Shown piece by piece: positions 13,508-43,383 of a stretch of DNA of 64,000 nucleotides. This stretch comes from an uncultured delta proteobacterium (GTDB lineage Bacteria > Desulfobacterota > Syntrophia > Syntrophales > Fen-1087): contig CAVWGC010000001.1 of NCBI GenBank assembly GCA_963754515.1, positions 456 to 64,455 on the forward strand, given 5' to 3'. A program made the position numbers and the translations under genes. The notes beneath the pieces were generated by a model, which saw nothing but the letters and a program-made list of their open reading frames with translations, had not been told where the DNA came from and searched no databases. How positions within the stretch are numbered: position 1 is the first letter of the stretch; each line of letters starts with the position of its first letter.

Positions 13508-13529
13508 TATAAATTTGATATAAATTATA

Positions 13530-13559
13530 TTGACAAACGCTTTTAACTTCCGGTATAAG
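13530..13559 (+). promoter_or_regulatory. Sigma70-like promoter for rplU-rpmA
   Basis: TTGACA at 13530-13535, 18-nt spacer, TATAAG at 13554-13559, preceded by an AT-rich UP-like tract. Confidence 0.5.
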
Positions 13560-13593
13560 TGCCGTTCAAAATTTTTCAACGAGGACAGGAATC

Positions 13594-13905
13594 ATGTACG
13601 CAGTGATAAAAGCAGGCGGAAAGCAGCACCGGGTCTCGCCCGGAGAAGTGCTCGCCGTTGAGAAGATCGCCGGTAATCGCGGTGAACAGGTTGTTTTCGA
13701 TCAGGTATTGATGGTCGTCGATGAGACGGATATCCGGATCGGCGCGCCCATCGTCGCAGGGGCCAGGGTGGTCGGCGAAATCCTGGAACAGAAAAAAGGA
13801 CCGAAAATCAACATTTTCAAAATGAAGCGCCGCAAGGGCTCCAAGAAAAAAACCGGGCATCGCCAGCTCTTGACCAGCATGAAGATCAAGGAAATATCGG
13901 TGTAA
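13594..13905 (+). CDS. rplU: 50S ribosomal protein L21
   Basis: [24 protein letters not shown]...GHRQ. Confidence 0.95.
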
Positions 13906-13917
13906 GCGGAGGACAGT

Positions 13918-14178
13918 ATGGCACACAAGAAGGGACAGGGGAGTTCCCGTAACGGGCGGGACAGCAATGCGCAGCGGCGGGGCGTCAAGGTTTTCGGCGG
14001 CCAGCAGATCAATGCCGGCGGCATCATCGTCCGCCAGGTGGGAACCCGGATCCATCCCGGCAATAACGTCGGATTAGGCAGGGACTACACGCTTTATGCC
14101 AGAATCGACGGTTTTGTCACCTATGAGCGGCTGGATAAAACAAGAAAAAAGGTCAGCGTTTACGCCGCACAGGCTTGA
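13918..14178 (+). CDS. rpmA: 50S ribosomal protein L27
   Basis: [29 protein letters not shown]. Confidence 0.95.
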
Positions 14179-14209
14179 TTTGCATACATAAAGGAGGATG
14201 CCGGTTCGC

Positions 14210-14419
14210 ATGGACGAGCGAGAAAGAGGCGTTGTTAAATGGTTCAACGACAAGAAAGGGTACGGATTCATTTCCCGTGAGTCGGGAAAGGACATTTTTG
14301 TTCACCATTCATCCATCGTCAGTGAAGGGTTTCGCAGCCTGAAGGAGGGCGATCAGGTTGAATTCTCCATCAAGCAGGACGAAAAGGGACAGGCGGCTGC
14401 CGATGTCCGCAAGGTTTAA
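14210..14419 (+). CDS. Cold-shock domain protein (CspA family)
   Basis: [15 protein letters not shown] (RNP1) and DIFVHHSSI (RNP2). Start choice 14198 versus 14210 is uncertain. Confidence 0.9.
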
Positions 14420-14467
14420 GCGACGCCGGCCATCCGCGTTTGCCCGGATAAAATAGCTGTACATTAT

Positions 14468-14502
14468 AAGGCACTTTTTCAGAAAGTGCCTTTTGTGTTT
14501 TT
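14468..14502 (+). terminator. Rho-independent terminator after csp
   Basis: AAGGCACTTT-ttcag-AAAGTGCCTT followed by TTGTGTTTTT. Confidence 0.75.
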
Positions 14503-14510
14503 GAATCCCC

Positions 14511-15518
14511 ATGAAATTTATCGACGAAGCGAAGATTTATGTGAAGGCGGGCGACGGCGGCAAGGGCTGCGTGAGTTTCCGGCGCGAAAAGTTTGTCCCC
14601 CGGGGCGGACCGAACGGCGGAGACGGCGGCAAGGGGGGCGATGTGATCATCCGGGCCGTCAACAGCCACCGGACCCTGCTGGATTTGAAATACCGGCAGC
14701 ATCAGACGGCAGAACGGGGCGGAGCCGGCGAGGGGAGCAACCGGACCGGACGAAGCTCGGATGATATTGTGGTGGTCGTTCCGATCGGCACCCTGGTCAA
14801 AGATGCCGATACCGGCGACGTGCTGGCCGATCTGACGGCGGACGGCCAGTCTTTCATCGCCGCCAGGGGCGGCATCGGCGGCCGCGGCAACGCCCGTTTC
14901 GCCACGGCGAGAAATCGGGCGCCGCGTTTTGCCCAGGACGGCATTCCCGGAGAAGAACGTAAGCTGCTGCTCGAACTCAAGCTGCTGGCCGATGTGGGCA
15001 TCATCGGCATGCCCAACGTGGGTAAATCGACCTTTATCGCCAGAGTCTCCGCTGCCCGGCCCAAAATCGCGGATTATCCCTTCACGACGCTGACTCCAAA
15101 CCTGGGGGTCGTGCGTCTGGACGTTGATGCGAGCTTTGTCATTGCCGACATCCCCGGCCTGATCCCGGGCGCTTCCCAGGGGCTGGGCATGGGCGTCCGT
15201 TTCCTGCGTCATGTGGAACGGACGACTCTTCTTCTGCATATCCTCGATATCACAAATGATTCTGACCCATGGACGAATTTCGAGGCCATCAACCGGGAGC
15301 TGGCCCGGTTCAGTCCGGAGCTGGTTCAAAAACCGCAGATCGTGGGGATAAACAAGCTCGACCTGCCGGAGACGCGCGAGAGAATCAAAAAAGAGATTGA
15401 CAACTTCCGTGGAAAAGGCATAGAAATCCTGACGTTTTCCGCTGTCACGGGTGAAGGCGTCAGCGAGGCCATCGGCCGGATCGCCCGAACACTGCAGACA
15501 GCAAACGAAGCCGGATAA
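14511..15518 (+). CDS. obgE: GTPase Obg/CgtA
   Basis: MKFIDEAKIYVKAGDGGKGCVSFRREKF, G1 motif GMPNVGKST, DIPGLI. Confidence 0.95.
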   Translation: MKFIDEAKIYVKAGDGGKGCVSFRREKFVPRGGPNGGDGGKGGDVIIRAVNSHRTLLDLKYRQHQTAERGGAGEGSNRTGRSSDDIVVVVPIGTLVKDADTGDVLADLTADGQSFIAARGGIGGRGNARFATARNRAPRFAQDGIPGEERKLLLELKLLADVGIIGMPNVGKSTFIARVSAARPKIADYPFTTLTPNLGVVRLDVDASFVIADIPGLIPGASQGLGMGVRFLRHVERTTLLLHILDITNDSDPWTNFEAINRELARFSPELVQKPQIVGINKLDLPETRERIKKEIDNFRGKGIEILTFSAVTGEGVSEAIGRIARTLQTANEAG

Positions 15519-30654: not shown

Positions 30655-31584
30655 TCAATCCGTTGCGCCGGCAGTTTCGATCTTCCGGATCTGATCGAAC
30701 AGTCTCTGATTCACCGGCGTGGGAACGTTGTAGCGCAGGCCCAGCTCGATCACCCTGCCGGCAAACATCTCCACCTCGGTTTTTCGACCCGCCTCCACGT
30801 CCTGAAGCATGGAGGTCTTCCCCTGCGGATTCAGCCGGAAGAGGAAGGGATCGAAACCGTCGATATCCGCTTCCGACAGATCAACACCGGCTTTGACGGC
30901 CAAACGCACCACTTCCCGCATGGCCGCGCCCATGAGCTCCCTCGCCTCCCCTGCGGTCTGAAACATCGCATAGGGGGCGCGCAGCACGGCCGATGCCTGG
31001 TTGATCCCCACGTTGATCATGAATTTCCACCACAGGATGCGCAGCATGTCCGGCGGCGTCTCATAAATGATGCCGGCCTTTTGAAAACATTCCTGAACGT
31101 GCCGGACCTTCTCCGTCGGAATGAGATTGGTTGCCTCGCCGATGAACAGCTTGCCCTGTGTGGTATAAATGACGCGATTTGCGTCCCGCAGTGCATCGAT
31201 TCCGAGGGAAACGGCGTACAGGACCCTGTCCATGCCATAGGCGGCGCCGATCCGCTCCTCGCTCTCGATGCCGTTCATGACGGAAATGATCAGGGTTTTC
31301 GCGCCCACCCGGTTTTTCATATCCCCGATGGCGTCGTCGAGATGCTGGTATTTGACGGCGACGATGACGAGATCGGCCGGCTCGGCGCGTTCCTCCGGGG
31401 TGAGGACGGAAATATGGTAGGATTTGCCGTTGACGACCACGCCTTCCCGGCGGAGCCTTTCTGCACGCTCTCCTCCGGCCACAAAGGCGACGCAACCGGG
31501 GTCCATATCATAAAGCATGGCGGCATAAACCGCCCCCAGCGCGCCGGCCCCGATAATGGAAACGGTTTTGATGGATGGTTTCAT
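30655..31584 (-). CDS. 2-dehydropantoate 2-reductase family (PanE/ApbA-like) oxidoreductase
   Basis: VSIIGAGALGAVYAAML Rossmann motif. Start at MKPSIK after GAGGAAG. Confidence 0.7.
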   Translation of the reverse strand: MKPSIKTVSIIGAGALGAVYAAMLYDMDPGCVAFVAGGERAERLRREGVVVNGKSYHISVLTPEERAEPADLVIVAVKYQHLDDAIGDMKNRVGAKTLIISVMNGIESEERIGAAYGMDRVLYAVSLGIDALRDANRVIYTTQGKLFIGEATNLIPTEKVRHVQECFQKAGIIYETPPDMLRILWWKFMINVGINQASAVLRAPYAMFQTAGEARELMGAAMREVVRLAVKAGVDLSEADIDGFDPFLFRLNPQGKTSMLQDVEAGRKTEVEMFAGRVIELGLRYNVPTPVNQRLFDQIRKIETAGATD

Positions 31585-31751
31585 AACTTCCTCAATCTTT
31601 ATTGCCACAGCATTTCTTAACGTCGAATTCAAATGTCCCGGCATGGAAATCATACCTAAAAGATATATGTTGTCAATCAGTTATATTTTGAGTGATATTT
31701 AAAGACAAGATGAAACGTTTTAACAATGGCACTATTTCATGTGGGGACCCG

Positions 31752-33070
31752 TTGCCTCATATTAAAATGTTACCCAAAGAGGAACGATAGAGGATAACGT
31801 TGCCTCATAAAGAATGTTACCCTAGCTTGATATGAGAGCAGATCCGTTTTAGTTTCTTTTCCATGGTTTTTCTTAACAGGAAAGGGTTGTTCTTTTCAAG
31901 TTGTTTGGAGAGGGCCTGTTTTATGGAATCAGAGATATGCGGTGAAGCGAGGATCCTCTGGTAAGAGGTTTTGGGAGTCATGGTGTTTGATGGTTTTAGA
32001 TCCGGATCTTTCTTTGGCGATGAGTTTGACGGAAGGGCAGAAGAAGTTGTGAAAGAGCCGCCATTCTTTTGTGTAGAGGTGATTGAGGAGGGACGATTCG
32101 GGTTGATCTAATCTTTCGTACCCCAGCCATTGTCTTGCGTGCGTCCAGTTTTTCTGTTCGATGTGTGCGTTATCGTCTTTGTGATAGGCCCTGCTGCGGG
32201 TAAAGCGGACGGATTGATTTCTTTGGGAGAAGTGACGGAAGAGGTGGTAATTGAGGAACTCTGAGCCGTTATCGGAATCGAAGCCGAGGAGAGGAAACGG
32301 CAGGGATTTTTCAATATCCTTGATTTGTTCCAGTACCCCGGTTTCTCCTTTTCCCCAGACGGCGCGTTGCTCGGTCCATCCGGTGGCGATATCGACGGTG
32401 TCGAGGTTATAGACGAACATACCTGAGAGGGATTCTCCGCAATGGGCGACGGTATCGGCCTCGAGGAACCCTGGTTTTGATTCGTCCCATTGATTGGTTT
32501 GGATGGGTATTTGTTTTCTTAAAAGGGTTCCCGGCTTGGTTGTTGATCGGCCCCTTTTTTGATATTGGATTCGGGTGGGTGCAAGAAGCCGGGCTATGGT
32601 TGCCGGAGAGATTGCCATCAGGGCATTTGTGACTTTTCTGGAGGAAGCTTTCCGAACAATTGATCATATCCGGGCATCCAGATCGGCAGAATGGCTTTCA
32701 GTCGTTTTGAGCAGGGAAGATTGGCTGCAAGCCATATCTGTTTTAGCGGGGTGATGACCTCGTCTTTCCGGTAAACGGGCTTTGGCCCCCGTCTCTTTGG
32801 CTTGGGTTTTGTAAATCGTTTGAAGCTGCGCAAGAGCCTGATGGCGTATTTACAGTGATAGCCGAACATTGCGCAGAACTCGTTAAGGATGAATGTTTTT
32901 TCGATGTGGGAGGCATTTTTATAGTGCCGGTGCGCGGCTTCCGTGTACTCTTTTTTGGATCGCGGACTCATGATTATCCCTCCTTTTGGAAGTCGATGTT
33001 CGGTAACATCGAATTATGAGTCAACGATCCTCTTTATTCACCTCCTTGGGTAACATTTAATATGAGTCAA
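31752..33070 (-). mobile_element. Insertion sequence (about 1.3 kb) with an rve-type DDE transposase, apparently decayed
   Basis: Terminal inverted repeats TTGCCTCATATTAAAATGTTACCCAAAGAGG (31752-31782) and CCTCCTTGGGTAACATTTAATATGAGTCAA (33041-33070). A second, subterminal copy of the about 23-bp motif is at each end (31800-31822 and 33002-33024). Confidence 0.8.
31817..32971 (-). pseudogene. DDE (integrase-core, rve) transposase with two frameshifts
   Basis: ORF 32618..32971 (HTH-like N-terminus) and ORF 31929..32618 (EADTVAH, FDSDNGSEF and HIEQKNW, forming the D-D-E triad) are in different frames (TGATG junction). The C-terminus continues in a third frame as TPKTSYQRILASPHISDSIKQALSKQLEKNNPFLLRKTMEKKLKRICSHIKLG down to the stop at 31817-31819. 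Confidence 0.8.
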
Positions 33071-33090
33071 TTCGGGGAGTCAATATTGCA

Positions 33091-33119
33091 TTGACAGACA
33101 AGTCCGATCTCTTTATACT
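33091..33119 (+). promoter_or_regulatory. Strong sigma70-like promoter for the CoA-transferase-GNAT gene
   Basis: TTGACA at 33091-33096, 17-nt spacer, TATACT at 33114-33119. Leaves a leader of about 110 nt. Confidence 0.55.
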
Positions 33120-33234
33120 TCCTGCCAATATCAAATATGAAGTTATTAAATAAAACCTTGATTAACCGTAAGAATCATTTAGATTTGCTAAAGGATGCAG
33201 CAGACAGTTCATAAGCCCAGATATTCAGATTGAT

Positions 33235-35124
33235 ATGAAGTTAGAAGCGAATTCACTTGAATACTGGAAAAAGAAATATCCCGAGAAGTTCACGTCGGAA
33301 GATATTATCTTCAGCCATATTCATCGAGGCAATACGATATTTATCGGTTCAGCTTGCGCGGAGCCGCAATATCTTGTTCAGGGGCTGATCCGCTATGTCG
33401 AGTCAAAGCCTCATGCCTTTTTCGATGCGGAAATCATTCACGTGAGGACTCTCGGCGTAGCCCCCTACACCGAAAAAAAATTCAAACGCAACTTTCGACA
33501 CAATTCTTTCTTTATCGGTGATACAACAAGGGATGCCATCAACACAGGGCAGGCAGATTACACGCCTATCCTCCTGTCCCAGTTACCCTCTTTATTTCAA
33601 AGGGGCCTCGTCCATATTGATGTGGCCCTTATTCAAACGTCCCTGCCTGACAGCCATGGCCATTTGAGCCTTGGCGTCAGTCTGGACATCGTGAAAGCTG
33701 CTGTTGAAAACGCCTCTCATGTTGTTGCCCAGGTTAATGACTGTATGCCTCGCGTCCATGGAGATTCTTTCATTTACATCGATGACATCGATTTCCTATT
33801 ACCTTATAATGAACCTCTTCTGGAATATAGCCCGGAGTCAGAGATGGAAATCACCCGTAAGATTGGGGATAATATTGCTCGTCTTGTTCAGGATGGCGAT
33901 ACGATCCAAGTTGGATATGGCGCCGTTACCAATGCCATCCTTGAGAACCTTTCCGGGAAAAAGCATCTTGGTGTGCATACTGAGCTCTTCAGTGACGGTA
34001 TTGTCGAACTCATGAAAAAAGGAGTTATCGACAATACAAAGAAAACCATCAATCGTGGGAAATCTGTGGCGACGTTCTGTATGGGGCATAAAAACACATA
34101 CGAATTTATCCATGACAATCCGGACATAGAATTCAGGACGATCGACTATACCAATAACCCTCTGGTGATTGCCCAGCATGAAAATATGGTGGCCATCAAC
34201 AGCGCTCTGGAAATTGACCTTTCCGGACAGGCTACGGCAGAATCTATCGGGAAAGTTTTTTACAGCGGGATCGGCGGACAAGCCGATTTTATGCGTGGGG
34301 CTTTCTTATCCAGAAATGGCAAGGCCATTCTTGCCCTTCCGTCAACGGCAGTGGGCGATAGTATCTCAAGGATCACGCCGGCACTTAAAGAGGGGGCTGG
34401 GACGACATTGATTCGTGGTGACATCCATTATGTTGTCACTGAGTATGGTATTGCCTATATTCACGGGAAAAGCATCCGTGAACGGGCAATGAACTTGATT
34501 GCCATCGCTCACCCCAAATTCAGACAATGGCTCGTTGAAGAAGCAAAGAAGTCAGGTCTGATCTATCAGGATCAGGCGTTCATCCCGGGGGAGAAAGGAA
34601 GGTACCCCGAGAAGCTGGAGTCTTACAAAACCACCAAAGCGGGTTTTAAGATATTCTTCCGACCCATTAAAATAAGTGATGAGCCGCTTTTAAAGGATTT
34701 TGTTTATTCTCTTTCTGATAACAGTTTGTACCGACGGTTTATTTCCATTCGTAAAGATATGCCCCATGAACGGCTTCAGGAGTTTGTCGTTATCGATTAT
34801 ACAAAAGAAATGGCGATTGTTGCTACTGTTGGCGATGAGGAGAATCAGGAAATCATAGGAGTAGGCAGATATTTTATTGACGAAAGCAAGCATTTCGCGG
34901 AAGTGGCTTTTGCTGTAAGAGATGAGTACCATAAGAAAGGTATTGGAACGGAGTTGCTTGTATATTTGACTTACCTTGCAAAGAGACAGGGGCTCCTGGG
35001 ATTTACTGCAGAGGTCTTAGCAGACAACACGCCAATGCTGCACGTGTTTGAAAATGGGGGGTTCGATATCGCAAAGCACAATATCGCCGGCATCTATGAA
35101 ATGACGATGGCCTTCAAGGAATAA
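33235..35124 (+). CDS. Acetyl-CoA hydrolase/transferase-family domain fused to a C-terminal GNAT acetyltransferase domain
   Basis: The N-terminal 430 aa resemble 4-hydroxybutyrate/acetyl-CoA transferases (GSACAEPQ, GVHTELFSDG, GIGGQADF). The C-terminal about 190 aa are a Pat-like GNAT (FRPIKISDEPLL...YRRF...HKKGIGTEL). Confidence 0.8.
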   Translation: MKLEANSLEYWKKKYPEKFTSEDIIFSHIHRGNTIFIGSACAEPQYLVQGLIRYVESKPHAFFDAEIIHVRTLGVAPYTEKKFKRNFRHNSFFIGDTTRDAINTGQADYTPILLSQLPSLFQRGLVHIDVALIQTSLPDSHGHLSLGVSLDIVKAAVENASHVVAQVNDCMPRVHGDSFIYIDDIDFLLPYNEPLLEYSPESEMEITRKIGDNIARLVQDGDTIQVGYGAVTNAILENLSGKKHLGVHTELFSDGIVELMKKGVIDNTKKTINRGKSVATFCMGHKNTYEFIHDNPDIEFRTIDYTNNPLVIAQHENMVAINSALEIDLSGQATAESIGKVFYSGIGGQADFMRGAFLSRNGKAILALPSTAVGDSISRITPALKEGAGTTLIRGDIHYVVTEYGIAYIHGKSIRERAMNLIAIAHPKFRQWLVEEAKKSGLIYQDQAFIPGEKGRYPEKLESYKTTKAGFKIFFRPIKISDEPLLKDFVYSLSDNSLYRRFISIRKDMPHERLQEFVVIDYTKEMAIVATVGDEENQEIIGVGRYFIDESKHFAEVAFAVRDEYHKKGIGTELLVYLTYLAKRQGLLGFTAEVLADNTPMLHVFENGGFDIAKHNIAGIYEMTMAFKE

Positions 35125-35264
35125 AAAGGGGCAAATTTAACGAATAACACCTTTTTTCTTGAAATGGAAATCTGTACCCTGTACAAGAAAGTGCGTTAAA
35201 AAAGCGGATCGAATTGACAAACATCGTGAAGCTCAAAAATTAAGAGGATCAAAGAGGAGGCATT

Positions 35265-35975
35265 ATGGAGACACCCCATTCACATGAAACGATGATGGAG
35301 CAGATTATCTCATCTCAGGTAAAAAAATGGCAGACGAATATGAAAAAGAAATATAAAAAGCCTATCCGTCCGGTCATTACCATTTCCAGACTGCCGGGCA
35401 GTGGTGCTGATACGCTGGCAAAACAACTGTCGACAGATTTGCATATAGACTTTTTTAACAATGAAATCGTAGGAGCCGTAGCCAAGAGCGCCAATGTGAG
35501 TGAGGCCGTGATCGCCACGCTTGATGAACAGGATCGTTCTATTCTGGATGACTGGATCGGTGCGCTTGAAAAAAAATATCATCTATGGCCTGATGAATAT
35601 TTACACCATCTGACAAAAGTTGTCGGCGCCATTGCCGCACATGGCCATGCCGTCATCGTCGGGAGGGGAGTTGGTTACATCCTGCCCAGTGAAGTCTGTC
35701 TCCGTCTGCTCATTGTTGCGCCCATGGATGTGCGCGTCCGGAATGTCATGCATGCCTATGGTGCGACCTATGAAGAGGCGGAAAAAAGGATCATTAAAAC
35801 TGAGAAGGATCGTAAGGCCTTTATTAAGAAATACTTTAATGCCGAACTGACTGATCCTGTTAATTATGACCTGACGCTCAATACAGCCCATTACACCGTT
35901 GAGGCGGCCGTGAATATCGTCAAGGAAGCCTTCAACGGTCGACCGTGGTATGATTATTCGATCAGAAAATCTTAA
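35265..35975 (+). CDS. Cytidylate kinase-like family protein
   Basis: ITISRLPGSGADTLAKQL P-loop-like motif with the overall pattern of the CMK-like family. Strong RBS AGAGGAGG. Confidence 0.65.
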   Translation: METPHSHETMMEQIISSQVKKWQTNMKKKYKKPIRPVITISRLPGSGADTLAKQLSTDLHIDFFNNEIVGAVAKSANVSEAVIATLDEQDRSILDDWIGALEKKYHLWPDEYLHHLTKVVGAIAAHGHAVIVGRGVGYILPSEVCLRLLIVAPMDVRVRNVMHAYGATYEEAEKRIIKTEKDRKAFIKKYFNAELTDPVNYDLTLNTAHYTVEAAVNIVKEAFNGRPWYDYSIRKS

Positions 35976-36102
35976 AGCAAATAAGTGTTAAAATGCGAAA
36001 AAGAAAGTTCTCTTCAATAATCAATTTATGAAGGGGCTCTTTCCTGGGGGCTCACCTTCGGAAACGCCCCCACCATCGCGCAGGAAAGGATACGGAACAC
36101 CC

Positions 36103-38247
36103 ATGAGCAACCTGAATGCCATTTTCGCACCGGAGTCGGTGGCCATCATCGGCGCCTCGACCACGCCGGGAAAGGTGGGGCACGATATCTTCGCCAATAT
36201 CCTGAAGGGGGGCTTCACGGGCACCCTCTATCCCGTCAACCCCAAGTCCAAGTCCGTCCTCAGCGTACGGGCCTTCCCCACCATCCGGGACGTCCCCGAC
36301 ACGGTGGATCTGGCCATGATCGTCCTGCCCCCGCAGGAGACCCTGAAGGCCGTCGAGGCGTCCGTGGCACACGGCGTCAAAGGCCTTGTCATCGTCTCCG
36401 CCGGTTTCCGGGAAGTGGGCGGCGCGGGCCTGGAGATCGAGAACCGTATCGTCGCCATTTGCCGGGAGGCGGGTATCCGCCTTGTCGGGCCCAACTGCCT
36501 GGGAGTCATCAACCCCATGCCCGCCGTCCGCCTCAACGCAAGCTTCTCCTCCCGCATGCCCGCCACCGGGAACATCTCCTTCATCTCGCAGAGCGGCGCG
36601 CTCTGTACTGCCGTCCTCGACTTCGCCGCCGACCGGGACTTCGGTTTCTCCAAGTTCATCTCCATCGGCAACAAGGCTGATGTGGACGAGTTGGACCTCC
36701 TCCGCTATTTCTACGAGGATCCGGACACGGCGGTGATCATGCTCTACATGGAGGAGCTCCGTCGGGGCGCGGAGTTCATTGAGGTCGTCAAGGAAATCAC
36801 CTCTGGAAGCCGCCCCACCCCGGTGCTCATCATCAAGTCCGGCCGCACGCGGGCGGGGGCCCAGGCCGCGGCCTCCCACACGGGGGCCCTGGCGGGTACC
36901 GAGGCGGTCTACGAGGCCATCTTCAAGCAGTCCGGGGTAATCCGCGCCGACACCGTGGATGAGCTCTTCGACTTTGCCAACGTCTTCGCCTACAAGCAGG
37001 AGAGCGCCCTCGGCAAGATGCGGCGCAAGCTCCCCGACGGGAACCGGGTGGCTATCGTCACGAACGCCGGCGGCCCGGGGATCCTCGCCACGGACATGAC
37101 CGTCTCATCGGATCTGCGGCTCGCTCAGTTTCAGAAAGAGACCATCGAGGACTTGGCCCAGCACCTGCCGCAGACGGCCAACATCCACAACCCCGTGGAC
37201 ATCATCGGTGACGCCACCCAGGAACGCTATGAGAGCGCCCTGCGGACGGTCATCAACGATCCGGGCGTGGACGGTGCTCTGGTCATTCTCACCCCCCAGT
37301 CCATGACCAACGCCCTAGGCACAGCGGAAGCCATCGTGCGTGTCGCCCGCCGGACCCAAAAGCCGATCCTCTGCTGCTTCATGGGGATCATCGACGTCTC
37401 CCCGGGCGTTAAATTCCTCCAGGAGCACGGGTACCCCGTATACAAGTTCCCTGAAAACACCGCAAAAGCGTTCAGTGCCCTCTATAAATATTCCCACTGG
37501 CTCAATCGGGAGCAACTGCCGGCGCTCACTCTCGCCCATGACCGGGCACAGGCCACCGAGCTAATCCAGCAGTGCCTTGCGGAGGGCCGGACCTATCTCG
37601 GGGAACTGGACGGCCTGGAGTTGCTGCGCTGCTATGGCTTCCAGACCCTTCCGACGCAACTGGCCGTAAGCGAGGGGGTGGCGGCGGACATCGCCGAGTC
37701 CATGGGCTTCCCGGTAGTGATGAAGATCGTCTCCGATCAGATCATCCATAAATCCGACGCGGGCGGCGTGGTGGTGGGGCTGCAGAACCGGGAAGAGACC
37801 GAAGCGGCCTACCACCGGATCATCGCCAACGCACGCCAGTACGACCCCCAGGCCTTCATCCGGGGGGTCCTGGTCCAGAAGATGGCCCCCAAAGGGGAAG
37901 AGGTAATCATCGGCATGAACCGCTACGGGGTCGGCCCGCTGCTGATGTTTGGCCTCGGGGGGATCTTCGTGGAGGTCTTCCGCGACGTGGTTTTCCGCCT
38001 GGCCCCCATCGACCGGAACGAGGCCCACGGCATGATCCGGGAGATCCGGGGCTGGCGGCTGCTCCAGGGCTTCCGGGGTCGTCCCGAGGCGGATACGGAC
38101 ACCTTGGAACGGCTGATGGTGTGCCTCTCCGACCTGGTGACGAACCACCCGGAGATCAATGAAATGGACATCAACCCGCTGCTGGTGCACCCCCAGGGCC
38201 AAGGAGCAACCGTGGCGGATTGTCGCATCATCCTGAGCCCCGCCTGA
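36103..38247 (+). CDS. ADP-forming acetyl/acyl-CoA synthetase (fused alpha-beta, CoA-binding plus ATP-grasp)
   Basis: SVAIIGASTTPGKVG, GPNCLGVINP, ISQSGALC, AASHTGALAG, and a C-terminal ATP-grasp (FPVVMKIVS...HKSDAGGV). Start set at MSNLNAIF. Confidence 0.85.
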   Translation: MSNLNAIFAPESVAIIGASTTPGKVGHDIFANILKGGFTGTLYPVNPKSKSVLSVRAFPTIRDVPDTVDLAMIVLPPQETLKAVEASVAHGVKGLVIVSAGFREVGGAGLEIENRIVAICREAGIRLVGPNCLGVINPMPAVRLNASFSSRMPATGNISFISQSGALCTAVLDFAADRDFGFSKFISIGNKADVDELDLLRYFYEDPDTAVIMLYMEELRRGAEFIEVVKEITSGSRPTPVLIIKSGRTRAGAQAAASHTGALAGTEAVYEAIFKQSGVIRADTVDELFDFANVFAYKQESALGKMRRKLPDGNRVAIVTNAGGPGILATDMTVSSDLRLAQFQKETIEDLAQHLPQTANIHNPVDIIGDATQERYESALRTVINDPGVDGALVILTPQSMTNALGTAEAIVRVARRTQKPILCCFMGIIDVSPGVKFLQEHGYPVYKFPENTAKAFSALYKYSHWLNREQLPALTLAHDRAQATELIQQCLAEGRTYLGELDGLELLRCYGFQTLPTQLAVSEGVAADIAESMGFPVVMKIVSDQIIHKSDAGGVVVGLQNREETEAAYHRIIANARQYDPQAFIRGVLVQKMAPKGEEVIIGMNRYGVGPLLMFGLGGIFVEVFRDVVFRLAPIDRNEAHGMIREIRGWRLLQGFRGRPEADTDTLERLMVCLSDLVTNHPEINEMDINPLLVHPQGQGATVADCRIILSPA

Positions 38248-38412
38248 ACGGACGATCCGGTACGCCCGAGATTTCTGATCAACGAGCCCGGCATTGGTTA
38301 ATAGATTGAATACGACCCAGGAAAAGACTAAGACGAATGCAGATGCAAAGGGACTGTTCACAATAGAAAAGATCATGACCGAGAAAAGTTCAGATGAAGC
38401 CCTGTCGTCCCC

Positions 38413-39294
38413 TCAGGCGTGCTCACCGGCCTTGCGCAGCAGCAGTCCCCAGTCCTCGTTGACCATTTGCTGGATCTGGTCGAGGTCCTGATCGGTAAGG
38501 TGCCTGAAGCGACCCTGGAGTCTGAAATACTCCCGCACGAGGTATTCCCTGGGCTTGTAGTTGATCGTATAACGCAGGCCGTCTTCCACCTCATAGAGCG
38601 GGAAAATGTTGGTCTGCACGGCCATGCGGGCGATCTTGACTGACATTTCGGAGGGAATGCGCCAGCCCGTGGGGCAACTCGCGTAGATGTGCAGAAACCG
38701 GGATCCTTTCGTTTCCTTTGCTTTCTGGGCCTTGCGCAGCAGGTCATCGGGATAGGCAATACTGGCTGTCGCCACATAGGGAATCCGGTGGGCCACGAGG
38801 ACTTCCACGATATTTTTCTTGCGCAGTCTTTTCCAGTCCCGGCCGGTGGTGGTCGTCGTCCAGGCGCCGTAGGGTGTGGAGGAGCTGCGCTGGATGCCGG
38901 TATTCATATAGGCTTCATTGTCGTAGCAGACATAGAGGAAATTTTCGTTGCGTTCCACGGCGCCGCTCAAGGCCTGGAAACCGATGTCGAAAGTCCCGCC
39001 GTCTCCGGCCCAGGTGAGCACGGTGGTTTCCGTATCGCCCAGCATGTCCAGGGCCGCCCGCACCCCGGTGGCCGTCGCGCCGCCCGTTTCAAAGGCTGCG
39101 TGGATCACGGGAATCTTCAGCGCCGATTGCGGATAAGCTCCTGCAATCACGGACCAGCAGCAGGCCGGGAGCACCATCATGGTCTTTTCTCCGAGCGCCT
39201 TGAGCACAAAACGCATGGCGATCGTCGCGCCACAACCCGGACATCCCACATGCCCCGAATGGACAAATTCTCGATCCATGACATCAGTCTGCAT
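38413..39294 (-). CDS. 2-oxoacid:ferredoxin oxidoreductase beta subunit (TPP-binding)
   Basis: GCPGCG near the N-terminus and the GDGG TPP motif (WAGDGGTFDIG). Confidence 0.85.
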   Translation of the reverse strand: MQTDVMDREFVHSGHVGCPGCGATIAMRFVLKALGEKTMMVLPACCWSVIAGAYPQSALKIPVIHAAFETGGATATGVRAALDMLGDTETTVLTWAGDGGTFDIGFQALSGAVERNENFLYVCYDNEAYMNTGIQRSSSTPYGAWTTTTTGRDWKRLRKKNIVEVLVAHRIPYVATASIAYPDDLLRKAQKAKETKGSRFLHIYASCPTGWRIPSEMSVKIARMAVQTNIFPLYEVEDGLRYTINYKPREYLVREYFRLQGRFRHLTDQDLDQIQQMVNEDWGLLLRKAGEHA

Positions 39295-40453
39295 ATTTCA
39301 CCTCATGCAACCCCATCCAGACACTTTCCTTTTGTGGCACGTCGCTGTTTTTCGTCTGCCAGTAGATCTCGGTCAGCATTTCCGGCGTCACGTCCCGGCC
39401 GCCGATTCCGGCGATGAAGCCGAATACGGGGGGATGATCGGGCATGTTGCAGAGCACGGCCCGGACCTCCTGGGCAAAGATGCCGCCGGCCCCGAATGAG
39501 AAATTCCGGTCGATGACGGCCACCTTTTTCGCCGCTTTGAGTTCTTCCCGGATCCTCTCTCCGGGAAAGGGCCGGAACAGCTTGATCTTCAGAATGCCCG
39601 CTTTTTCTCCCTTTGCCCTCAATTCCTTCAGGGCGAGGCGGCAGGTGCTCGTCACGGTTCCCGACGTCACGAAGATGATTTCCGCATCCTCGCACGCAAT
39701 GGCCTCTACGGGACCGTACCGCCGGTCAAACTGCGCGGCAAAGACATCCTCGATCTCGCCGAAACGGATGAGGGCGTCTTCCATGGCCAGGGCGATGTGG
39801 TAACGCATTTCCATATAGTCGCCGGGCGCCACCAGCGGGCCGAAGCCGCAGGGGTGCGCCGTGTCCAGTTGAAACTTCGGAACATAAGGGGGCAGAAAAC
39901 GGTCGACTTCTTCCTGGCCGGGGACATCCACCGGTTCATAGGTATGGGAAAGATAGAAGGCGTCCAGGACGATCATGACGGGCAGATTCACCGTTTCGGC
40001 CAGATAAAAAGCCTGGAGGGTCGAGTCCAGCACCTCCTGGCCGTTCTCGCAGTACATCTGGATCCAGCCCGTGTCCCGCTGGGCCAGGCTGTCGGTCTGA
40101 TCGACCCAGATGTTCCATCCCGGCGCGAGGGCCCGGTTGACCTCGGCCATGACGATGGGAAGCCGGGCGCCGGACGCCCAGTGCAGCAGCTCATGCATCA
40201 GGGCAAGCCCCTGCCCGGAGGTCGCAGTGAAGGTTCTCACCCCCGCGGTCTGGGCGCCGATGAGCGCGGCCATGCAGGAATGTTCGCTTTCCACGCGCAG
40301 GAACCTGGCGTTCATCAACCCCTTCGTACAGTATTCCGACAGGATCTCCACAATATGGGTCTGCGGCGTGATCGGATAGGCGGAAATCACCTGAACCTTC
40401 GCCAGCCTCACCGCTTCTGCGACGGCATGGCTGCCTTCCAGGACCCGCTTCAT
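39284..40453 (-). CDS. 2-oxoacid:ferredoxin oxidoreductase alpha subunit
   Basis: MKRVLEGSHAVAEAVRLAKVQVISAYPITPQT... is typical of PorA/VorA. ATGA overlap with the upstream gene. Confidence 0.85.
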   Translation of the reverse strand: MKRVLEGSHAVAEAVRLAKVQVISAYPITPQTHIVEILSEYCTKGLMNARFLRVESEHSCMAALIGAQTAGVRTFTATSGQGLALMHELLHWASGARLPIVMAEVNRALAPGWNIWVDQTDSLAQRDTGWIQMYCENGQEVLDSTLQAFYLAETVNLPVMIVLDAFYLSHTYEPVDVPGQEEVDRFLPPYVPKFQLDTAHPCGFGPLVAPGDYMEMRYHIALAMEDALIRFGEIEDVFAAQFDRRYGPVEAIACEDAEIIFVTSGTVTSTCRLALKELRAKGEKAGILKIKLFRPFPGERIREELKAAKKVAVIDRNFSFGAGGIFAQEVRAVLCNMPDHPPVFGFIAGIGGRDVTPEMLTEIYWQTKNSDVPQKESVWMGLHEVKYAD

Positions 40454-42201
40454 GGCTTCTCCTCCCCGAGGGACATGGCATTGCGGGGACATTCCACCAC
40501 GCACAGGCCGCATCCCTTGCAATAGTCGTAATTGATATGCCGTCCCTGAGGATCCCTCTCAAGGATCACCGAAGTGTCCGGGCAGTAGATGTAGCAGTTG
40601 TCGCACTGGTTGCAGATACCGCAGTTGAAGCAGCGCTCCGCCTCTTTCATGGCCAGTTGGGCTGATATCTTCAGATCGATTTCTTCGAAGGATCGGACCC
40701 GTTCTTCCTTGAGCAGCCGGGGTTGGGTTACCCGGGAAATGAATTGAAAATGATCGGTGTTGATTTCCTCATAGCGGACCACATGCGGGTTTCTGAGCCG
40801 GCGCTCCCCACCCAGATAGACCTCCATGGAAAGGGACCGGCCGTCTCCGACCCGACAGGCCTCCAGTCTCGGGACGACGGCTTCGATACCCTCCTGAAAA
40901 AGGATGTCCAGCGCAATGGCGGCCTGCTTGCCGGACGCGACGGCGTGGACCACACTTTTTGTCGCGTTGGTCAGATCGCCGCCAAAGACCAGGACAGCGC
41001 CCGGTGCCCGGCGGTCCAGAACCGTGTGGGTAAGCTTGAACATTTCCCGATCGGCGGCATCGGGCTCATGCCAGGCTTCAACCACCTGGGCGCCGATGGC
41101 CTTGAAAAGCCGGTCCACCCGGATCTGTCTTATTTTTCCGTGGTCTGGAACAATACGCCCCCTGCTGTTTTCCTCGCCGGCAATCATCATCTCCTGCAGC
41201 GTCAGCAGGATTTTTTCCCCCTCCTGTGCAACAGCCACAAGCGCCACGAGTTCCTGCAGATCCACGCCCTCTTCAAGCGCCATTTCCACTTCAGGATCGA
41301 AGGCGGGCATATCCCGTCGCCGGCGACGGTAGAGCAGGAGGGCTTTTCCCCCCAGGCGCACGATGTTGCGCGCTACGTCGACAGCGGTATTGCCTCCGCC
41401 GATGACGGCCGACACGCCCTGGCAGGCCGGTGTTTTGCCGTCCCGGAGCTGCCGCAGGAAATCCAGGCCCTCACCGACGCCTTTGAGATTCTCTCCGGGC
41501 ACATTCATCGCCGTCCCCCGGCCGTGGCCGCAGGCCATGAACACGGCATCGAAGTCTTTCTTCAACGTTTCCAGAATCTCTGCAGTTACCGGTTTTCCTA
41601 AAACGATGGATACGCCCTGCGCCTCGATCTGCTTGATATCATGCCGCAGGGCCGTCAAAGGCAGACGGTAAGCGGGGATGCCCCAGCGCAGGATCCCGCC
41701 GGCTTCCATGTCTGTCTCAAAAACGCGGCAGGAATAACCCAGCAGGGTCAGAAACCAGGCGGCGGATAGCCCTGCCGGGCCTGCGCCGACAATGGCGATC
41801 TTCTGTCTCCGGGGCGGTCTTATTTCGAGATCCGGTTTGATGCCGTAGCGGATGGCCGTATCCGCAAGAAACCGCTCAAGACTGTGGATGGCCACAGCGG
41901 CATCGAATTCCCGACGGTTGCAGAGGTCTTCACAGGGATGGAAACAGACACGGCCGCAGACGGAAGGAAAGGGATTCTCCAGAAGAATCGTCTCCCAGGC
42001 TTCCTTGAAGAGCCCCTGCGTCGCGAGCATCTCGATCCGGGCGATGTCCTCTCCTGCCGGACAGGCGGCGCTGCAGGGCGATGTTTTTTCATCGTACCGC
42101 GGGCGTGCGAAACGCCACGACCCGGTCTTGTTGCTCTCCGTGGTCAGATAAGTGCACGGCATGAATAAGGGATTGGGATTTGCCGATTCGTTCATGGTCA
42201 T
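40450..42201 (-). CDS. GltD/NfnB-like FAD/NAD(P)-binding oxidoreductase fused to a C-terminal 2x[4Fe-4S] ferredoxin (PorD-like) domain
   Basis: N-terminal Cys motifs (CSAACPAGEDI, CGRVCFHPCEDLC). Dinucleotide folds IAIVGAGPAGLSAA and VIGGGNTAVD. C-terminal CFNCGICNQCDNCYIYCP...CKGCGLCVVECP. Confidence 0.8.
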   Translation of the reverse strand: MTMNESANPNPLFMPCTYLTTESNKTGSWRFARPRYDEKTSPCSAACPAGEDIARIEMLATQGLFKEAWETILLENPFPSVCGRVCFHPCEDLCNRREFDAAVAIHSLERFLADTAIRYGIKPDLEIRPPRRQKIAIVGAGPAGLSAAWFLTLLGYSCRVFETDMEAGGILRWGIPAYRLPLTALRHDIKQIEAQGVSIVLGKPVTAEILETLKKDFDAVFMACGHGRGTAMNVPGENLKGVGEGLDFLRQLRDGKTPACQGVSAVIGGGNTAVDVARNIVRLGGKALLLYRRRRRDMPAFDPEVEMALEEGVDLQELVALVAVAQEGEKILLTLQEMMIAGEENSRGRIVPDHGKIRQIRVDRLFKAIGAQVVEAWHEPDAADREMFKLTHTVLDRRAPGAVLVFGGDLTNATKSVVHAVASGKQAAIALDILFQEGIEAVVPRLEACRVGDGRSLSMEVYLGGERRLRNPHVVRYEEINTDHFQFISRVTQPRLLKEERVRSFEEIDLKISAQLAMKEAERCFNCGICNQCDNCYIYCPDTSVILERDPQGRHINYDYCKGCGLCVVECPRNAMSLGEEKP

Positions 42202-42203
42202 TT

Positions 42204-42767
42204 TTATCCGATCATTCCCAGCAGGCAGACCGCTTCGAACGCCTCGCGGGCCGCCTCGATATTTTTTTGCGCCTCGGCTGCAAGGTCTTCCCTGATTGCA
42301 GCGGCAATGGCTTCCAGGGGCGGCATTCCCAGTATCCTTGAGAAGGCCCCGATCATGGCGGTGTTGACGATGGGATGGGTGCGCGTCCCCAGCCGGTGAT
42401 TGAGCGCGATCTGATTGGCGTCCACATGGGCCAATTGAAAACCGGCATAGGGCGTCAAATCGACAGGCGGCGAGGGGCCGTTGATCAGAATCCAGCCGCC
42501 GGGCTTCAGCCCCCGCGTGACATTGATGCTGTGCAGAAGGGTCTGATCCTGAACGGCCACGTGGTCCGGCGTGGTGACGTTTGTTCGCAGCAGGATCTTT
42601 TCCCTGTCCAGGCGAACATAGGCTTCGACGGGTGCGCCGCGCCGCTCTACGCCGAAAAAGGGGAAGCTCTGAACCTGATAGCCGGCCTCGAAAAAGGCCT
42701 TGGCCAGCAGAATGGTGGCGACCACCGTTCCCTGGCCGCCGCGGCCGTGAAAACGGATCTCGATCAT
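42204..42767 (-). CDS. 2-oxoacid:ferredoxin oxidoreductase gamma subunit
   Basis: MIEIRFHGRGGQGTVV is the canonical PorG N-terminus. Confidence 0.85.
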   Translation of the reverse strand: MIEIRFHGRGGQGTVVATILLAKAFFEAGYQVQSFPFFGVERRGAPVEAYVRLDREKILLRTNVTTPDHVAVQDQTLLHSINVTRGLKPGGWILINGPSPPVDLTPYAGFQLAHVDANQIALNHRLGTRTHPIVNTAMIGAFSRILGMPPLEAIAAAIREDLAAEAQKNIEAAREAFEAVCLLGMIG

Positions 42768-42780
42768 TTTTTTACCTTTT

Positions 42781-43383
42781 TCAGGTTTTGTTCCACACAA
42801 CCACCACGGCCCGCGCCGGGGCCTCCGTCAGCGAGCGGAAACTGTGGTTCAGGCCGGAGTCAAAATAAAGGGCGTCGCCGGCAGAAAGGCTCTCCACGCG
42901 GTCATTGGTGCGGAATTCAAGCTTTCCATCCAGAAGAAACATGAATTCCTCTCCTTCGTGGCTCGTGAACACCATCTCTGCCGTTTCCATCGGCACGAAT
43001 TCGACCAGAAGCGGTTCCATATGCTTGCCGGGCATCCTGGCCTCGAGGGACTCGTAGACATAATCGACCTCGCCTTCCCGGTGATGCGGGCGCCGCTTGA
43101 CGCTGAGCCGTTCTCCGGCCCGGGTGACGGAAACCTGCTCGACAGGCGCCTCATCCTTGAAGAAATAGGCCATCCCGATATTGAGCGCCCTGGCCAGCTT
43201 CAGCAGGGTGGCCACGGGCGGCATGATCTCGTCGGATTCGATCTCGTTCAGCACGGATTTGGAAATGCCGGTCTTCGCAGCCAGGTCGTGGAGGGTATAG
43301 AAGTTTCTTTCACGCAGATCTTTGACCTTGCCGCCGATTTTGAATTCCCCTGCGGCAGAAAGGGTTTGCTCGTTCTGTGGCAT
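42781..43383 (-). CDS. XRE-family HTH regulator with a C-terminal cupin domain
   Basis: LRERNFYTLHDLAAKTGISKSVLNEIESDE (HTH_3), then a cupin beta-barrel (HEGEEFMFLLDGKLEF...YFDSGLNHSF). Start at MPQNEQ after GGAGGTG. Confidence 0.8.
   Translation of the reverse strand: MPQNEQTLSAAGEFKIGGKVKDLRERNFYTLHDLAAKTGISKSVLNEIESDEIMPPVATLLKLARALNIGMAYFFKDEAPVEQVSVTRAGERLSVKRRPHHREGEVDYVYESLEARMPGKHMEPLLVEFVPMETAEMVFTSHEGEEFMFLLDGKLEFRTNDRVESLSAGDALYFDSGLNHSFRSLTEAPARAVVVVWNKT

Follow-up and report, generated by a model that had tools for sequence, protein, structure and literature searches.

We propose, with moderate confidence, that three neighbouring genes at 33235–38247 of the window (the whole 64-kb stretch of DNA analysed here) work together as a single unit at the acyl-CoA/acetate node of a Syntrophales-like anaerobic bacterium, regulated through a lysine acetyltransferase that is built into it. 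The genes encode a CoA-transferase–GNAT fusion (FUS), a kinase-like protein (CMK) and an ADP-forming acyl-CoA synthetase (ACD(B)), and the ORF listing places them as an earlier note had described them. In many uncultured microbes their families are found side by side, and this co-occurrence points to a hitherto undescribed unit for the control of acetate and acyl-CoA metabolism. The features of the locus are:

31752–33070, minus strand: decayed insertion sequence (IS), its terminal inverted repeats imperfect and its transposase broken up into at least two frames
33091–33119, plus strand: candidate sigma-70-type promoter, TTGACA-17-TATACT, matching the consensus at 11 of 12 positions
33235–35124, plus strand: FUS, 629 aa, with a family-I CoA-transferase at residues 13–440 and a Pat-type GNAT at about 468–629
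35153–35264, plus strand: conserved intergenic block before CMK, containing TTTTTTCTTGAAAT..., AATTGACAAACATC and a GAGGAGG Shine-Dalgarno
35265–35975, plus strand: CMK, a PF13189 'cytidylate kinase-like' protein, 236 aa, Pfam score 145.9 bits
36103–38247, plus strand: ACD(B), a fused alpha-beta ADP-forming acyl-CoA synthetase, 714 aa from ATG 36103

Domain content of the three proteins

Judged by sequence, both domains of FUS are intact, the short-chain acyl-CoA:carboxylate CoA-transferase as well as the Pat-type lysine acetyltransferase. The completeness of the transferase, already claimed in the earlier note, is borne out by Pfam models PF02550 and PF13336 across residues 13–437; GNAT models match across 473–614, and the top NCBIfam match of the GNAT part is the mycobacterial Pat. 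The transferase domain is of the 4-hydroxybutyrate/short-chain fatty acid (SCFA) type and about 50% identical to active enzymes, its closest solved match being 9vag (E 1e-122). The segment GVHTELFSDG (246–255), in which the note had placed the catalytic glutamate, aligns with the same segment of the solved 4-hydroxybutyrate CoA-transferases 9vag, 3eh7 and 2oas; position 250 is Glu in 39 of 42 FUS homologues and Asp in the other three, and GGQxDF (347–352) is invariant or nearly so. With the 4-hydroxybutyrate and butyryl-CoA:acetate CoA-transferases (AbfT 3gk7; 3eh7; 2oas; TIGR03948), FUS shares the two-domain fold family of about 430 aa, the catalytic Glu in GxHTE and GGQxDF, whereas none of these enzymes has the GNAT. 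Against the TIGR03948 equivalog model FUS reaches 270 bits, far below the cut-off of 675, which precludes assignment of a substrate.

The GNAT part aligns with PatZ (9it0), SlPatA (4nxy) and MtPat (4ava), in keeping with the comparison to Pat drawn earlier. AE556VAF of FUS falls on AEFA (PatZ), AEVAF (SlPatA) and AEIAF (MtPat), whose Glu we take to be the general base of those enzymes, and hence Glu556 to be that of FUS; HKKGIG (566–571) matches motif A of Pat-group GNATs, so that the acyl-CoA-binding motif is retained on alignment. FUS thus has the same GNAT subtype as Pat/PatZ (YfiQ, type I) and Streptomyces PatA (type II), with which it has the general base, motif A and FRPI...LYRRF in common and which provide its best solved matches (9it0, 9isq, 4nxy; E 5e-19 and 3e-15). 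All of them fuse a large CoA-thioester-binding domain to the GNAT and have genetic ties to ACD-type proteins and to Acs. In Pat, however, the partner domain is NDP-forming acyl-CoA-synthetase-like, while in FUS it is a family-I CoA-transferase with its catalytic residue kept, and the ACD at the FUS locus is, unlike in Pat, a separate and apparently active enzyme. This CoA-transferase–GNAT architecture lies outside the published type I–V classification of bacterial lysine acetyltransferases (PMC8556138) and is not mentioned in PMC12184503.

ACD(B) contains five ACD domains (Pfam) and, like the ACDs of archaea and anaerobic bacteria, has these together with the His loop, AASHTGALAG, at residue 281 of the 739-aa ORF. 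SHTG is kept in all 46 ACDs. ACD(B) thus has the phosphohistidine loop that characterises active enzymes of this class and, as the note had supposed, apparently is active itself. The ORF is open from 36028 (739 aa), with GGAAAGGA 13 nt upstream of ATG 36103; the latter is probably the start, more likely so than 36028.

For the middle gene, the cytidylate-kinase-like assignment (PF13189) stands but not the P-loop that the earlier note had read into it. CMK scores 49.9 bits against the (d)CMP kinase model, under the cut-off of 102.1, and has SRLPGSGADT at the position of the P-loop kinase motif GxxGxGK[ST]. In the subfamily alignment the Walker-A lysine is absent from all 13 members and from both solved relatives, 3hdt and 3fdi, the only ones available and neither named for a function. 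Since the catalytic lysine is absent and the 'P-loop' degenerate, CMK probably does not work as a kinase but as an accessory subunit that binds a nucleotide or CoA. Its N-terminus bears a conserved basic extension (W22 Q23 ... KKKYKKPIRPV).

Linkage across genomes

The linkage of the families was surveyed from both sides. Among 62 species-representative FUS loci from at least ten phyla, each with at least 2.5 kb downstream of FUS, an ACD is present in 46 and lies directly downstream in 39. A protein with AAA_26 and DRTGG domains (c2) occurs in 41, CMK in 12 and Acs in 6, while neither ACD nor Acs is found near FUS in 13; with an ACD, the usual order is FUS-ACD-c2. The two domains of c2 are those of the N-terminal regulatory half of the E. 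coli-type phosphotransacetylase (Pta). In most relatives c2 follows the ACD as a free-standing protein, unlike that half, with the ACD in place of the Pta catalytic domain. The neighbours of FUS in relatives comprise ACD, this Pta-N-terminal-like protein, AMP-forming Acs and SatP, and the L072 operon includes an SCFA transporter. L023 contains, next to FUS and Acs, an ACD that retains its His loop and is itself fused to the same GNAT type. Within the 64-kb window, a search for Acs and c2 revealed neither, and no sirtuin-type partner was found.

From the side of CMK, 26 metagenome loci flanked by 3 kb or more on each side contained FUS in 20, ACD in 16 and c2 in 14 cases; linkage of CMK to the cluster was seen only within Syntrophales. 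There, co-conservation of the three genes, on which the earlier note had made its proposal depend, is visible: 10 loci have exactly the order FUS-CMK-ACD(B), and clusters of these families come in at least seven different arrangements (others being L082/L126/L159, L084/L119, L105–109, L110–114, L164 and L017/L138/L139). On this sequence evidence, the association of the gene families has outlasted many rearrangements and extends over several phyla. ACD(B) does not need FUS, since orthologues about 75% identical to it are often found among unrelated genes (L085–L087). An ACD(B) 87% identical to that of the window follows an AtoDA-type transferase and a thiolase in L081. A wetland metatranscriptome holds FUS and CMK fragments of about 90% identity.

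Proposed function and its alternatives

The closest solved relative of the transferase domain is taken to be TtCoAT (TT_C1083) of Thermus thermophilus, a broad SCFA:acetyl-CoA CoA-transferase which is acetylated by a GNAT on Lys5 (10.1101/2025.10.31.685773). We take 9vag to be this enzyme, as its depositor name is the same and 9VAG is mentioned once in that report. In Thermus, the acetyltransferase TT_C1711 is a separate protein, and an NAD+-sensing alanine-dehydrogenase-like subunit serves as regulator (10.1101/2025.10.31.685773). FUS, by contrast, contains its GNAT, and its partners are ACD, CMK and, in relatives, the Pta-N-like protein. By analogy, the transferase domain of FUS would exchange CoA between acetyl-CoA and C3–C5 acids, and the ACD would convert acetyl-CoA or acyl-CoA with ADP and Pi to acid, CoA and ATP. 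Together they would allow substrate-level phosphorylation from any acyl-CoA accepted by the transferase, or activation in the reverse direction. In the acetate:succinate CoA-transferase/succinyl-CoA synthetase cycle of hydrogenosomes and trypanosomes, a CoA-transferase and an NDP-forming synthetase gain ATP from a CoA thioester in the manner proposed here; that cycle uses succinyl-CoA synthetase, while here an ACD is present, plus an acetyltransferase domain and accessory proteins. The fused GNAT would read the acetyl-CoA supply and acetylate lysines on enzymes of the same node. Its most probable targets would be AMP-forming acyl-CoA synthetases, since these are the classic Pat target and their genes lie beside FUS in several genomes, with ACD or FUS itself as alternatives. 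As an effect, a futile cycle between ATP-yielding acetate formation and ATP-consuming acetate activation would be avoided. CMK would act as the accessory subunit binding nucleotide or CoA.

The idea of the earlier note amounts to an acyl relay: the transferase would spend acetyl-CoA to turn a free acid into a non-acetyl acyl-CoA (propionyl-, butyryl-, crotonyl- or 4-hydroxybutyryl-CoA), the GNAT would acylate a target with it and the ACD would supply or recycle the thioester. Two intact catalytic centres within one chain would fit this reading, as would the many SCFAs accepted by the closest solved transferase, and conservation of the fusion at 57–93% identity across phyla suggests that the two domains cooperate. 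We nevertheless regard it as unlikely: the GNAT carries no sequence sign of a wider acyl pocket, and the Acs, SatP and Pta-N-like neighbours point to acetate handling. The geometry between the domains has no usable model, as the linker (410–458) is predicted at pLDDT <50 and both structure models are too weak for domain contacts. The genomic context supports the plainer reading equally well or better, in which CoA-transferase and ACD are catabolic partners and the fused Pat-type acetyltransferase regulates.

A rather improbable reading makes FUS just another regulated lysine acetyltransferase, with a transferase domain that only binds acetyl- or acyl-CoA and switches the GNAT allosterically, like the dead ACD-like domain of Pat/PatZ. 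Type I–III enzymes all have a ligand-sensing domain beside the GNAT (PMC8556138), and that of PatZ is required for activity (PMC12184503). The sensor domain of Pat, however, has lost its catalytic His (PMC8556138), whereas FUS homologues keep Glu or Asp at position 250 and GGQxDF in a domain this close to active enzymes. That the GNAT modifies a small molecule or a protein N-terminus instead of lysine side chains seems very doubtful: generic GNAT models match as well, including RimI at E 1e-4, but all solved relatives found by sequence are protein lysine acetyltransferases of the Pat group or Sulfolobus Pat, and the N-terminal FRPI...LYRRF segment is common to them and FUS.

Origin and upstream elements of the present copy

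FUS and CMK are AT-richer than the synthetase gene, as stated previously, with GC contents of 0.46, 0.46 and 0.64 and GC3 of 0.50, 0.49 and 0.85, respectively (flanks about 0.72). The sharp GC break at about 36,030 shows that this lineage acquired its present arrangement of the three genes only recently. In the FUS tree, a starred clade of 9 comprises the canonical FUS-CMK-ACD(B) proteins, while the window and L007 fall among FUS-ACD(A) operons in another starred clade (100/92), which shows that the order FUS-CMK-ACD arose at least twice. The FUS gene of the window is 91% identical in nucleotides to that of L006, 35153–35980 is 89% identical to L006 15145–15972, and the DNA of the window equals that of L006 minus positions 11892–15144. 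FUS and CMK of the window derive from a FUS-ACD(A)-c2-CMK operon after loss of ACD(A)-c2, and their AT-richness reflects origin in an operon type other than that of ACD(B). They now precede a compositionally different ACD(B), by which the gene order normal for another FUS clade is recreated. That an IS-associated insertion merely placed two foreign genes before an unrelated housekeeping synthetase is highly improbable: the GC3 break, the decayed IS and the closest ACD(B) (94% identity, L084), which has neither flank in common with the window, would agree with it, but the order recurs in 10 loci and two separate FUS clades, the closest ACD(B) relatives (L084, L119) also have CMK and FUS beside them in another order, and the CMK–ACD(B) junction is present on an independent sediment metagenome contig (X3).

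The earlier note had let the genes follow an IS, and inverted repeats at about 31750–31782 and 33041–33070 (repeats I1–I5) do mark one where the AT-richer block begins on the left. This IS is context and not part of the module, a decayed neighbour just upstream of a native candidate promoter and not a driver of expression. Its transposase ORFs (32618–32971 and 31929–32618) resemble the IS481 family weakly (E 1.3e-6; 28 bits, cut-off 224), and the window contains no second copy. The near-consensus promoter and leader of about 110 nt up to the FUS start were recovered as noted before. The candidate promoter lies inside a 39-nt block 90% identical to L006 9913–9951, upstream of the FUS gene of L006, in which both hexamers are identical and the spacer has diverged; the leader displays no conservation in relatives, no Rfam match and no unusual fold. 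In relatives, the block preceding CMK sits between the c2 gene and CMK (by-eye alignment of L003, L005 and L006). Judging from its sequence, this block may be an internal promoter or operator, and CMK may with it constitute a separate transcription unit.

Domain composition of the fusion protein

The sequence of the locus displays two intact catalytic domains in the CoA-transferase–GNAT fusion (FUS), an active-looking ADP-forming acyl-CoA synthetase (ACD; the type found in the window is termed ACD(B)) and a persistent linkage. The following features are considered:

About 31750-31782 and 33041-33070: inverted repeats of a decayed insertion sequence (IS) just upstream of the promoter; repeats imperfect, transposase split over frames
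33091-33119, + strand: sigma-70-type promoter candidate, TTGACA-17-TATACT, 11 of 12 consensus positions
33235-35124, + strand: FUS, 629 aa, from its open reading frame and Pfam/NCBIfam matches
35153-35264: conserved block of 112 nt before the kinase-like gene; the same region precedes the kinase-like gene in loci L003, L005 and L006 of other genomes or metagenomes
35265-35975, + strand: kinase-like gene (CMK), 236 aa, PF13189
36028-38247, + strand: open reading frame of ACD(B), start better placed at ATG 36103; five-domain ACD

The earlier note had described a complete family-I CoA-transferase domain in FUS, which could be confirmed, since both halves of the fold are matched by Pfam at full length (PF02550, 159.8 bits, residues 13-190; PF13336, 211.1 bits, residues 284-437) and the domain aligns end to end with the solved 4-hydroxybutyrate CoA-transferases 9vag (E 1e-122), 3eh7, 2oas and 3gk7. 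In this family the catalytic glutamate forms the acyl-anhydride and CoA-thioester intermediates. This residue is retained in FUS as claimed: Glu250 in GVHTE aligns with the HTE segment of 9vag, 3eh7 and 2oas, and among 42 aligned homologues of many phyla (mean column identity 69%), 39 have Glu and 3 have Asp at this position. In the GGQxDF segment, no variation occurs at G347, G348, F352, R354 and G355. The three Asp-bearing copies belong to Bacillota / Syntrophomonadaceae FUS genes (L067, L070, L071). A Glu-to-Asp change reportedly made glutaconate CoA-transferase a CoA-ester hydrolase, and if this precedent holds, these copies might be hydrolases. With a best score of 269.7 against a cut-off of 674.8, the transferase part misses all NCBIfam equivalog cut-offs, and its substrate therefore cannot be named. 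The closest solved relative, 9vag, is presumably the Thermus enzyme TtCoAT. TtCoAT has been described as a broad-range short-chain acid CoA-transferase whose Lys5 is acetylated by a GNAT (10.1101/2025.10.31.685773).

GNAT models of Pfam cover residues 473-614, and the best NCBIfam match of this part is the mycobacterial Pat model (79.4 bits against a cut-off of 460). The best solved matches are full-length PatZ (9it0, 9isq), the GNAT of Streptomyces PatA (4nxy, 4u5y) and mycobacterial Pat (4ava, 4orf). Glu556 in the segment AEVAF aligns with Ala-Glu segments of PatZ, SlPatA and MtPat, the glutamates of which we take to be the general bases of those enzymes, and the position is acidic in 41 of the 42 homologues. 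Motif A (Q/R-x-x-G-x-G/A) reads HKKGIG (566-571); 35 of 42 homologues have Q, and G569 is invariant. The assignment as a Pat-type GNAT with intact motif consequently stands. From 42 homologues, the structure of FUS was predicted with a mean pLDDT of 74 and a pTM of 0.61; pLDDT falls below 50 at 325-348, 371-394 and 410-458, which includes the linker, and whether the active sites face each other therefore cannot be read from the model.

Bacterial GNAT lysine acetyltransferases are classed as types I-V: in types I and II the GNAT is joined to a dead NDP-forming acyl-CoA-synthetase-like domain, in type III to small ligand-binding domains; the known job of the Pat group is to turn off AMP-forming acyl-CoA synthetases at high acetyl-CoA (PMC8556138). 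In the structure of PatZ, the acyl-CoA-synthetase-like domain was found to be essential for activity, and a CoA-transferase partner domain is not mentioned in that paper (PMC12184503). FUS lacks the dead synthetase-like domain that defines types I and II and carries a CoA-transferase in its place. Because of this partner domain and the Pat score below cut-off, it is not a type I/II Pat and represents at most a type-III-like layout with a new domain. Judged by its sequence, we regard it as a new architecture variant, Pat-type in its GNAT part and missing the defining type I/II feature. FUS would add to the type I-V scheme an acetyltransferase architecture which is missing there, and what serves as its "regulatory" domain probably is at the same time an enzyme of the regulated pathway. 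A full-text literature search returned no description of a CoA-transferase–GNAT fusion.

A search with the GNAT part only, against 1.84 billion representatives, returned three layouts: stand-alone proteins, residues ~430-620 of many proteins of 585-663 aa (the layout of FUS) and the C-terminus of Pat-like proteins of ~960 aa. At L023:7763-14899, a protein of 921 aa combines a complete ACD, the His loop of which is intact (ASHTGSLAG), with a C-terminal Pat-type GNAT and is followed directly by FUS and then by an AMP-forming acyl-CoA synthetase (Acs); its sequence resembles a type I Pat in which the catalytic histidine of the synthetase domain was not lost.

Gene order and origin of the window's copy

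FUS was followed over one genome per species, giving 80 loci with 57-93% identity to the window's FUS. Bacterial loci were found in Syntrophales, Dehalococcoidia, Anaerolineales, Neomarinimicrobiota, Nitrospirota, Bacillota, Actinomycetota, Lentisphaeria and Desulfovibrionaceae, archaeal ones in Thermoplasmata, Methanomassiliicoccales, Woesearchaeota and Heimdallarchaeota. Sequence extends 2.5 kb or more downstream of FUS in 62 loci; among these, an ACD is present at 46 (39 directly downstream on the same strand), a protein of ~345 aa termed c2 at 41, the kinase-like gene at 12 and Acs at 6; overall, Acs lies beside FUS in 6-9 loci. In the common operon, the ACD is of another type, ACD(A), which has only 33-37% identity to the ACD(B) of the window and also keeps the His loop. 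c2 consists of AAA_26 and DRTGG, both of which it shares with the E. coli-type phosphotransacetylase, where they form the N-terminal regulatory half. Approached from the kinase-like subfamily in metagenome contigs (80 loci, 26 of which extend 3 kb or more to either side), FUS was met at 20 of 26 loci, ACD at 16 and c2 at 14. These families are combined in at least seven arrangements:

FUS-ACD(A)-c2-CMK
FUS-CMK-ACD(B)
FUS-ACD(A)-c2 converging on CMK
c2 / CMK / FUS
CMK, c2 and FUS next to a divergent ACD(B)
ACD(B)-CMK with FUS convergent
CMK-FUS

The window's exact order, FUS-CMK-ACD(B), recurs in 10 loci, and together with these arrangements this supports the proposed co-conservation of the three genes. 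Further neighbours are Acs with a SatP/YaaH-type carboxylate channel near FUS in Dehalococcoidia and Actinomycetota, and an AtoE-type SCFA transporter within the operon of L072; along with the ACD-GNAT protein of L023, they fit short-chain acid handling. Within the 64-kb window, c2, Acs, SatP and ACD(A) were not found. Some Syntrophaceae genomes hold two FUS paralogues (L020:996-8924; also L016 and L080, from one MAG), which in L020 flank the kinase-like gene on the opposite strand.

As stated in the earlier note, the first two genes of the window are AT-richer than the third and follow an IS: the GC content is 0.46 for FUS, 0.46 for the kinase-like gene and 0.64 for ACD(B), with GC3 values of 0.50, 0.49 and 0.85 compared to ~0.72 in flanking genes. 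Window positions 33217-35125 share 91% DNA identity with the FUS gene of L006, and 35153-35980 share 89% with L006 15145-15972, from which we conclude that the window carries an L006-type FUS-ACD(A)-c2-CMK operon minus ~3.25 kb, namely ACD(A) and c2. L007 has the window's order, and there the first ~20 nt of the ACD(A) gene remain after the FUS stop codon. In a maximum-likelihood tree, nine FUS proteins from canonical FUS-CMK-ACD(B) operons group in one well-supported clade, whereas those of the window and L007 fall into a different supported clade (100/92) consisting mostly of FUS-ACD(A) operons. The same order in two separate clades indicates that it was produced at least twice, and of all arguments for a functional link we consider this repeated creation the strongest.

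The GC break at ~36,030 is a seam. An assembly chimera at this position is ruled out, since the low-GC block sits within high-GC sequence and the CMK/ACD junction recurs in the independent freshwater-sediment metagenome contig X3, in L007 and in L019. X3 joins 35980 to 36085 over a shortened spacer. This spacer between the kinase-like gene and ACD(B) (35981-36084) differs from one close relative to the next: three soil metagenomes have contigs that break at 35980/35982, and in one contig from sediment 18 nt stand in place of 104 nt.

Synthetase, kinase-like protein and proposed role

ACD(B) shows the five-domain set of CoA_binding, Succ_CoA_lig, Ligase_CoA_2 and ATP-grasp_5 in Pfam. Its start is better placed at ATG 36103, because relatives measure 714-719 aa, DNA homology with the closest relative begins at 36112 and GGAAAGGA lies before that ATG. 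The phosphohistidine loop AASHTGALAG is located at 281-290 of the 739-aa open reading frame, and SHTG is kept in all 46 aligned ACDs beside FUS genes, of both types, in line with the suggestion of a separately encoded and apparently active ADP-forming synthetase. Scores were 564.7 against a cut-off of 567.15 for the curated family model TIGR02717 and 658 against one of 1300 for the best full-length model, 4-hydroxybutyrate-CoA ligase. ACD(B) is a common Desulfobacterota enzyme, with ~75%-identical orthologues often in unrelated contexts. The closest ACD(B) copies (94%; L084, L119) are followed by the kinase-like gene and a convergent FUS; between window 36103-38254 and L084 559-2701 the gene shares 90% DNA identity, while neither flank is common to both. 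With a GC3 above that of its own neighbours, the ACD(B) gene may itself have been relocated. At L081:352-5345, an ACD(B) 87% identical to that of the window is preceded by a thiolase and a two-subunit AtoDA-type CoA-transferase, so that a different transferase family occupies the position of FUS. In the window, a 2-oxoacid:ferredoxin oxidoreductase operon (38413-43383, minus strand) converges on the ACD(B) gene and is a plausible acyl-CoA source for the enzyme.

The kinase-like protein matches PF13189, a family without known function, at 145.9 against 28 (Pfam), and scores 49.9 with the (d)CMP kinase model TIGR02173, below the cut-off of 102.1. Its designation as a P-loop protein needs revision: the Walker A site reads SRLPGSGADT compared to GxxGxGK[ST] with its catalytic lysine, and the lysine is present in 0 of 13 subfamily members and also missing in the only solved relatives, 3hdt and 3fdi, so that the protein is not a canonical P-loop kinase. 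The names of 3hdt and 3fdi state no function, and a full-text search found none described for PF13189. Conserved in the subfamily are a basic N-terminal extension (W22, Q23, K27, K29, Y30, K31, P33, R35, P36) and the segments LDEQDR, HGHAxIVGRG, NYDL and FNSRxWY. The structure predicted from 13 homologues is unusable (pLDDT 46). Linkage of the gene to the cluster is confined to Syntrophales, and its product is most likely an accessory subunit binding a nucleotide or a CoA-type ligand.

We propose an acyl-CoA/acetate node, in which CoA transfer is combined with an ATP-yielding ACD and the fused GNAT acts as regulator. The transferase should shift CoA between acetyl-CoA and short-chain acids, as known for its family, and the ACD should interconvert acyl-CoA, ADP and Pi with acid, CoA and ATP; together, they would gain ATP from any acyl-CoA accepted by the transferase. 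When expressed with the ATP-yielding ACD, the GNAT would guard against futile cycling with Acs, which by analogy to known Pat enzymes is the role we prefer for it. Control of acetate activation through reversible lysine acetylation by Pat is a textbook case in bacteria. To our knowledge, this control is described almost only from aerobes and facultative organisms. The FUS family would extend it to strict anaerobes and archaea near the thermodynamic limit, that is syntrophs, Dehalococcoidia, Marinimicrobia, Nitrospirota and Thermoplasmata- and Heimdall-type archaea, where every ATP from acyl-CoA counts. The close association with an active ACD suggests a concrete, testable route by which Pat could have gained its dead ACD-like domain. 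The cluster would also provide a first functional context for PF13189 and for free-standing AAA_26-DRTGG proteins.

A further-reaching alternative, which taken as a whole we regard as unlikely, is that FUS, the active ACD, c2 and the kinase-like protein form one complex, a "split Pat". The GNAT would then dock on the working ACD as on the dead ACD-like domain of Pat/PatZ, with the kinase-like protein joining the complex in Syntrophales, and four modules that each bind a nucleotide or CoA in a different way would let it sense acetyl-CoA, CoA and adenylate charge. By acetylating Acs and/or its own enzymes, the complex would set which way the acetate switch runs, and it would represent the ancestral state of enterobacterial Pat (ACD-like domain plus GNAT), with the L023 protein as an intermediate.

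Promoter, leader and transcription

The near-consensus promoter with a leader of ~110 nt, proposed in the earlier note, was recovered as a candidate from the sequence. It is part of a 39-nt block with 90% identity to the region upstream of FUS in L006, with both hexamers identical and the spacer diverged. As L006 shares this block, it is probably the native promoter and the IS inserted just upstream; an outward promoter carried by the IS is ruled out, since L006 has the block and no IS there. The leader is not common to relatives, in which homology begins 6-18 nt before the ATG, and it folds no better than shuffled sequences (z +0.63). Over 31000-39000, no Rfam match was obtained at E ≤0.1. 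On the + strand, no terminator-like site was found between FUS, the kinase-like gene and ACD(B). The conserved block before the kinase-like gene may hold an internal promoter or operator, and this gene may have its own promoter. The organism itself was not found in any RNA run; in one wetland metatranscriptome, ~90%-identical short contigs cover FUS and part of CMK, showing no more than that relatives of these genes are probably transcribed.

In L001, L002 and L072, a sigma-54-type element (TTGGCAAGTCACTTGCA, GG-N10-GC) lies ~100-130 nt upstream of FUS and replaces the sigma-70-type promoter of the window and L006. At L082, a histidine kinase and a sigma-54 activator adjoin the cluster.
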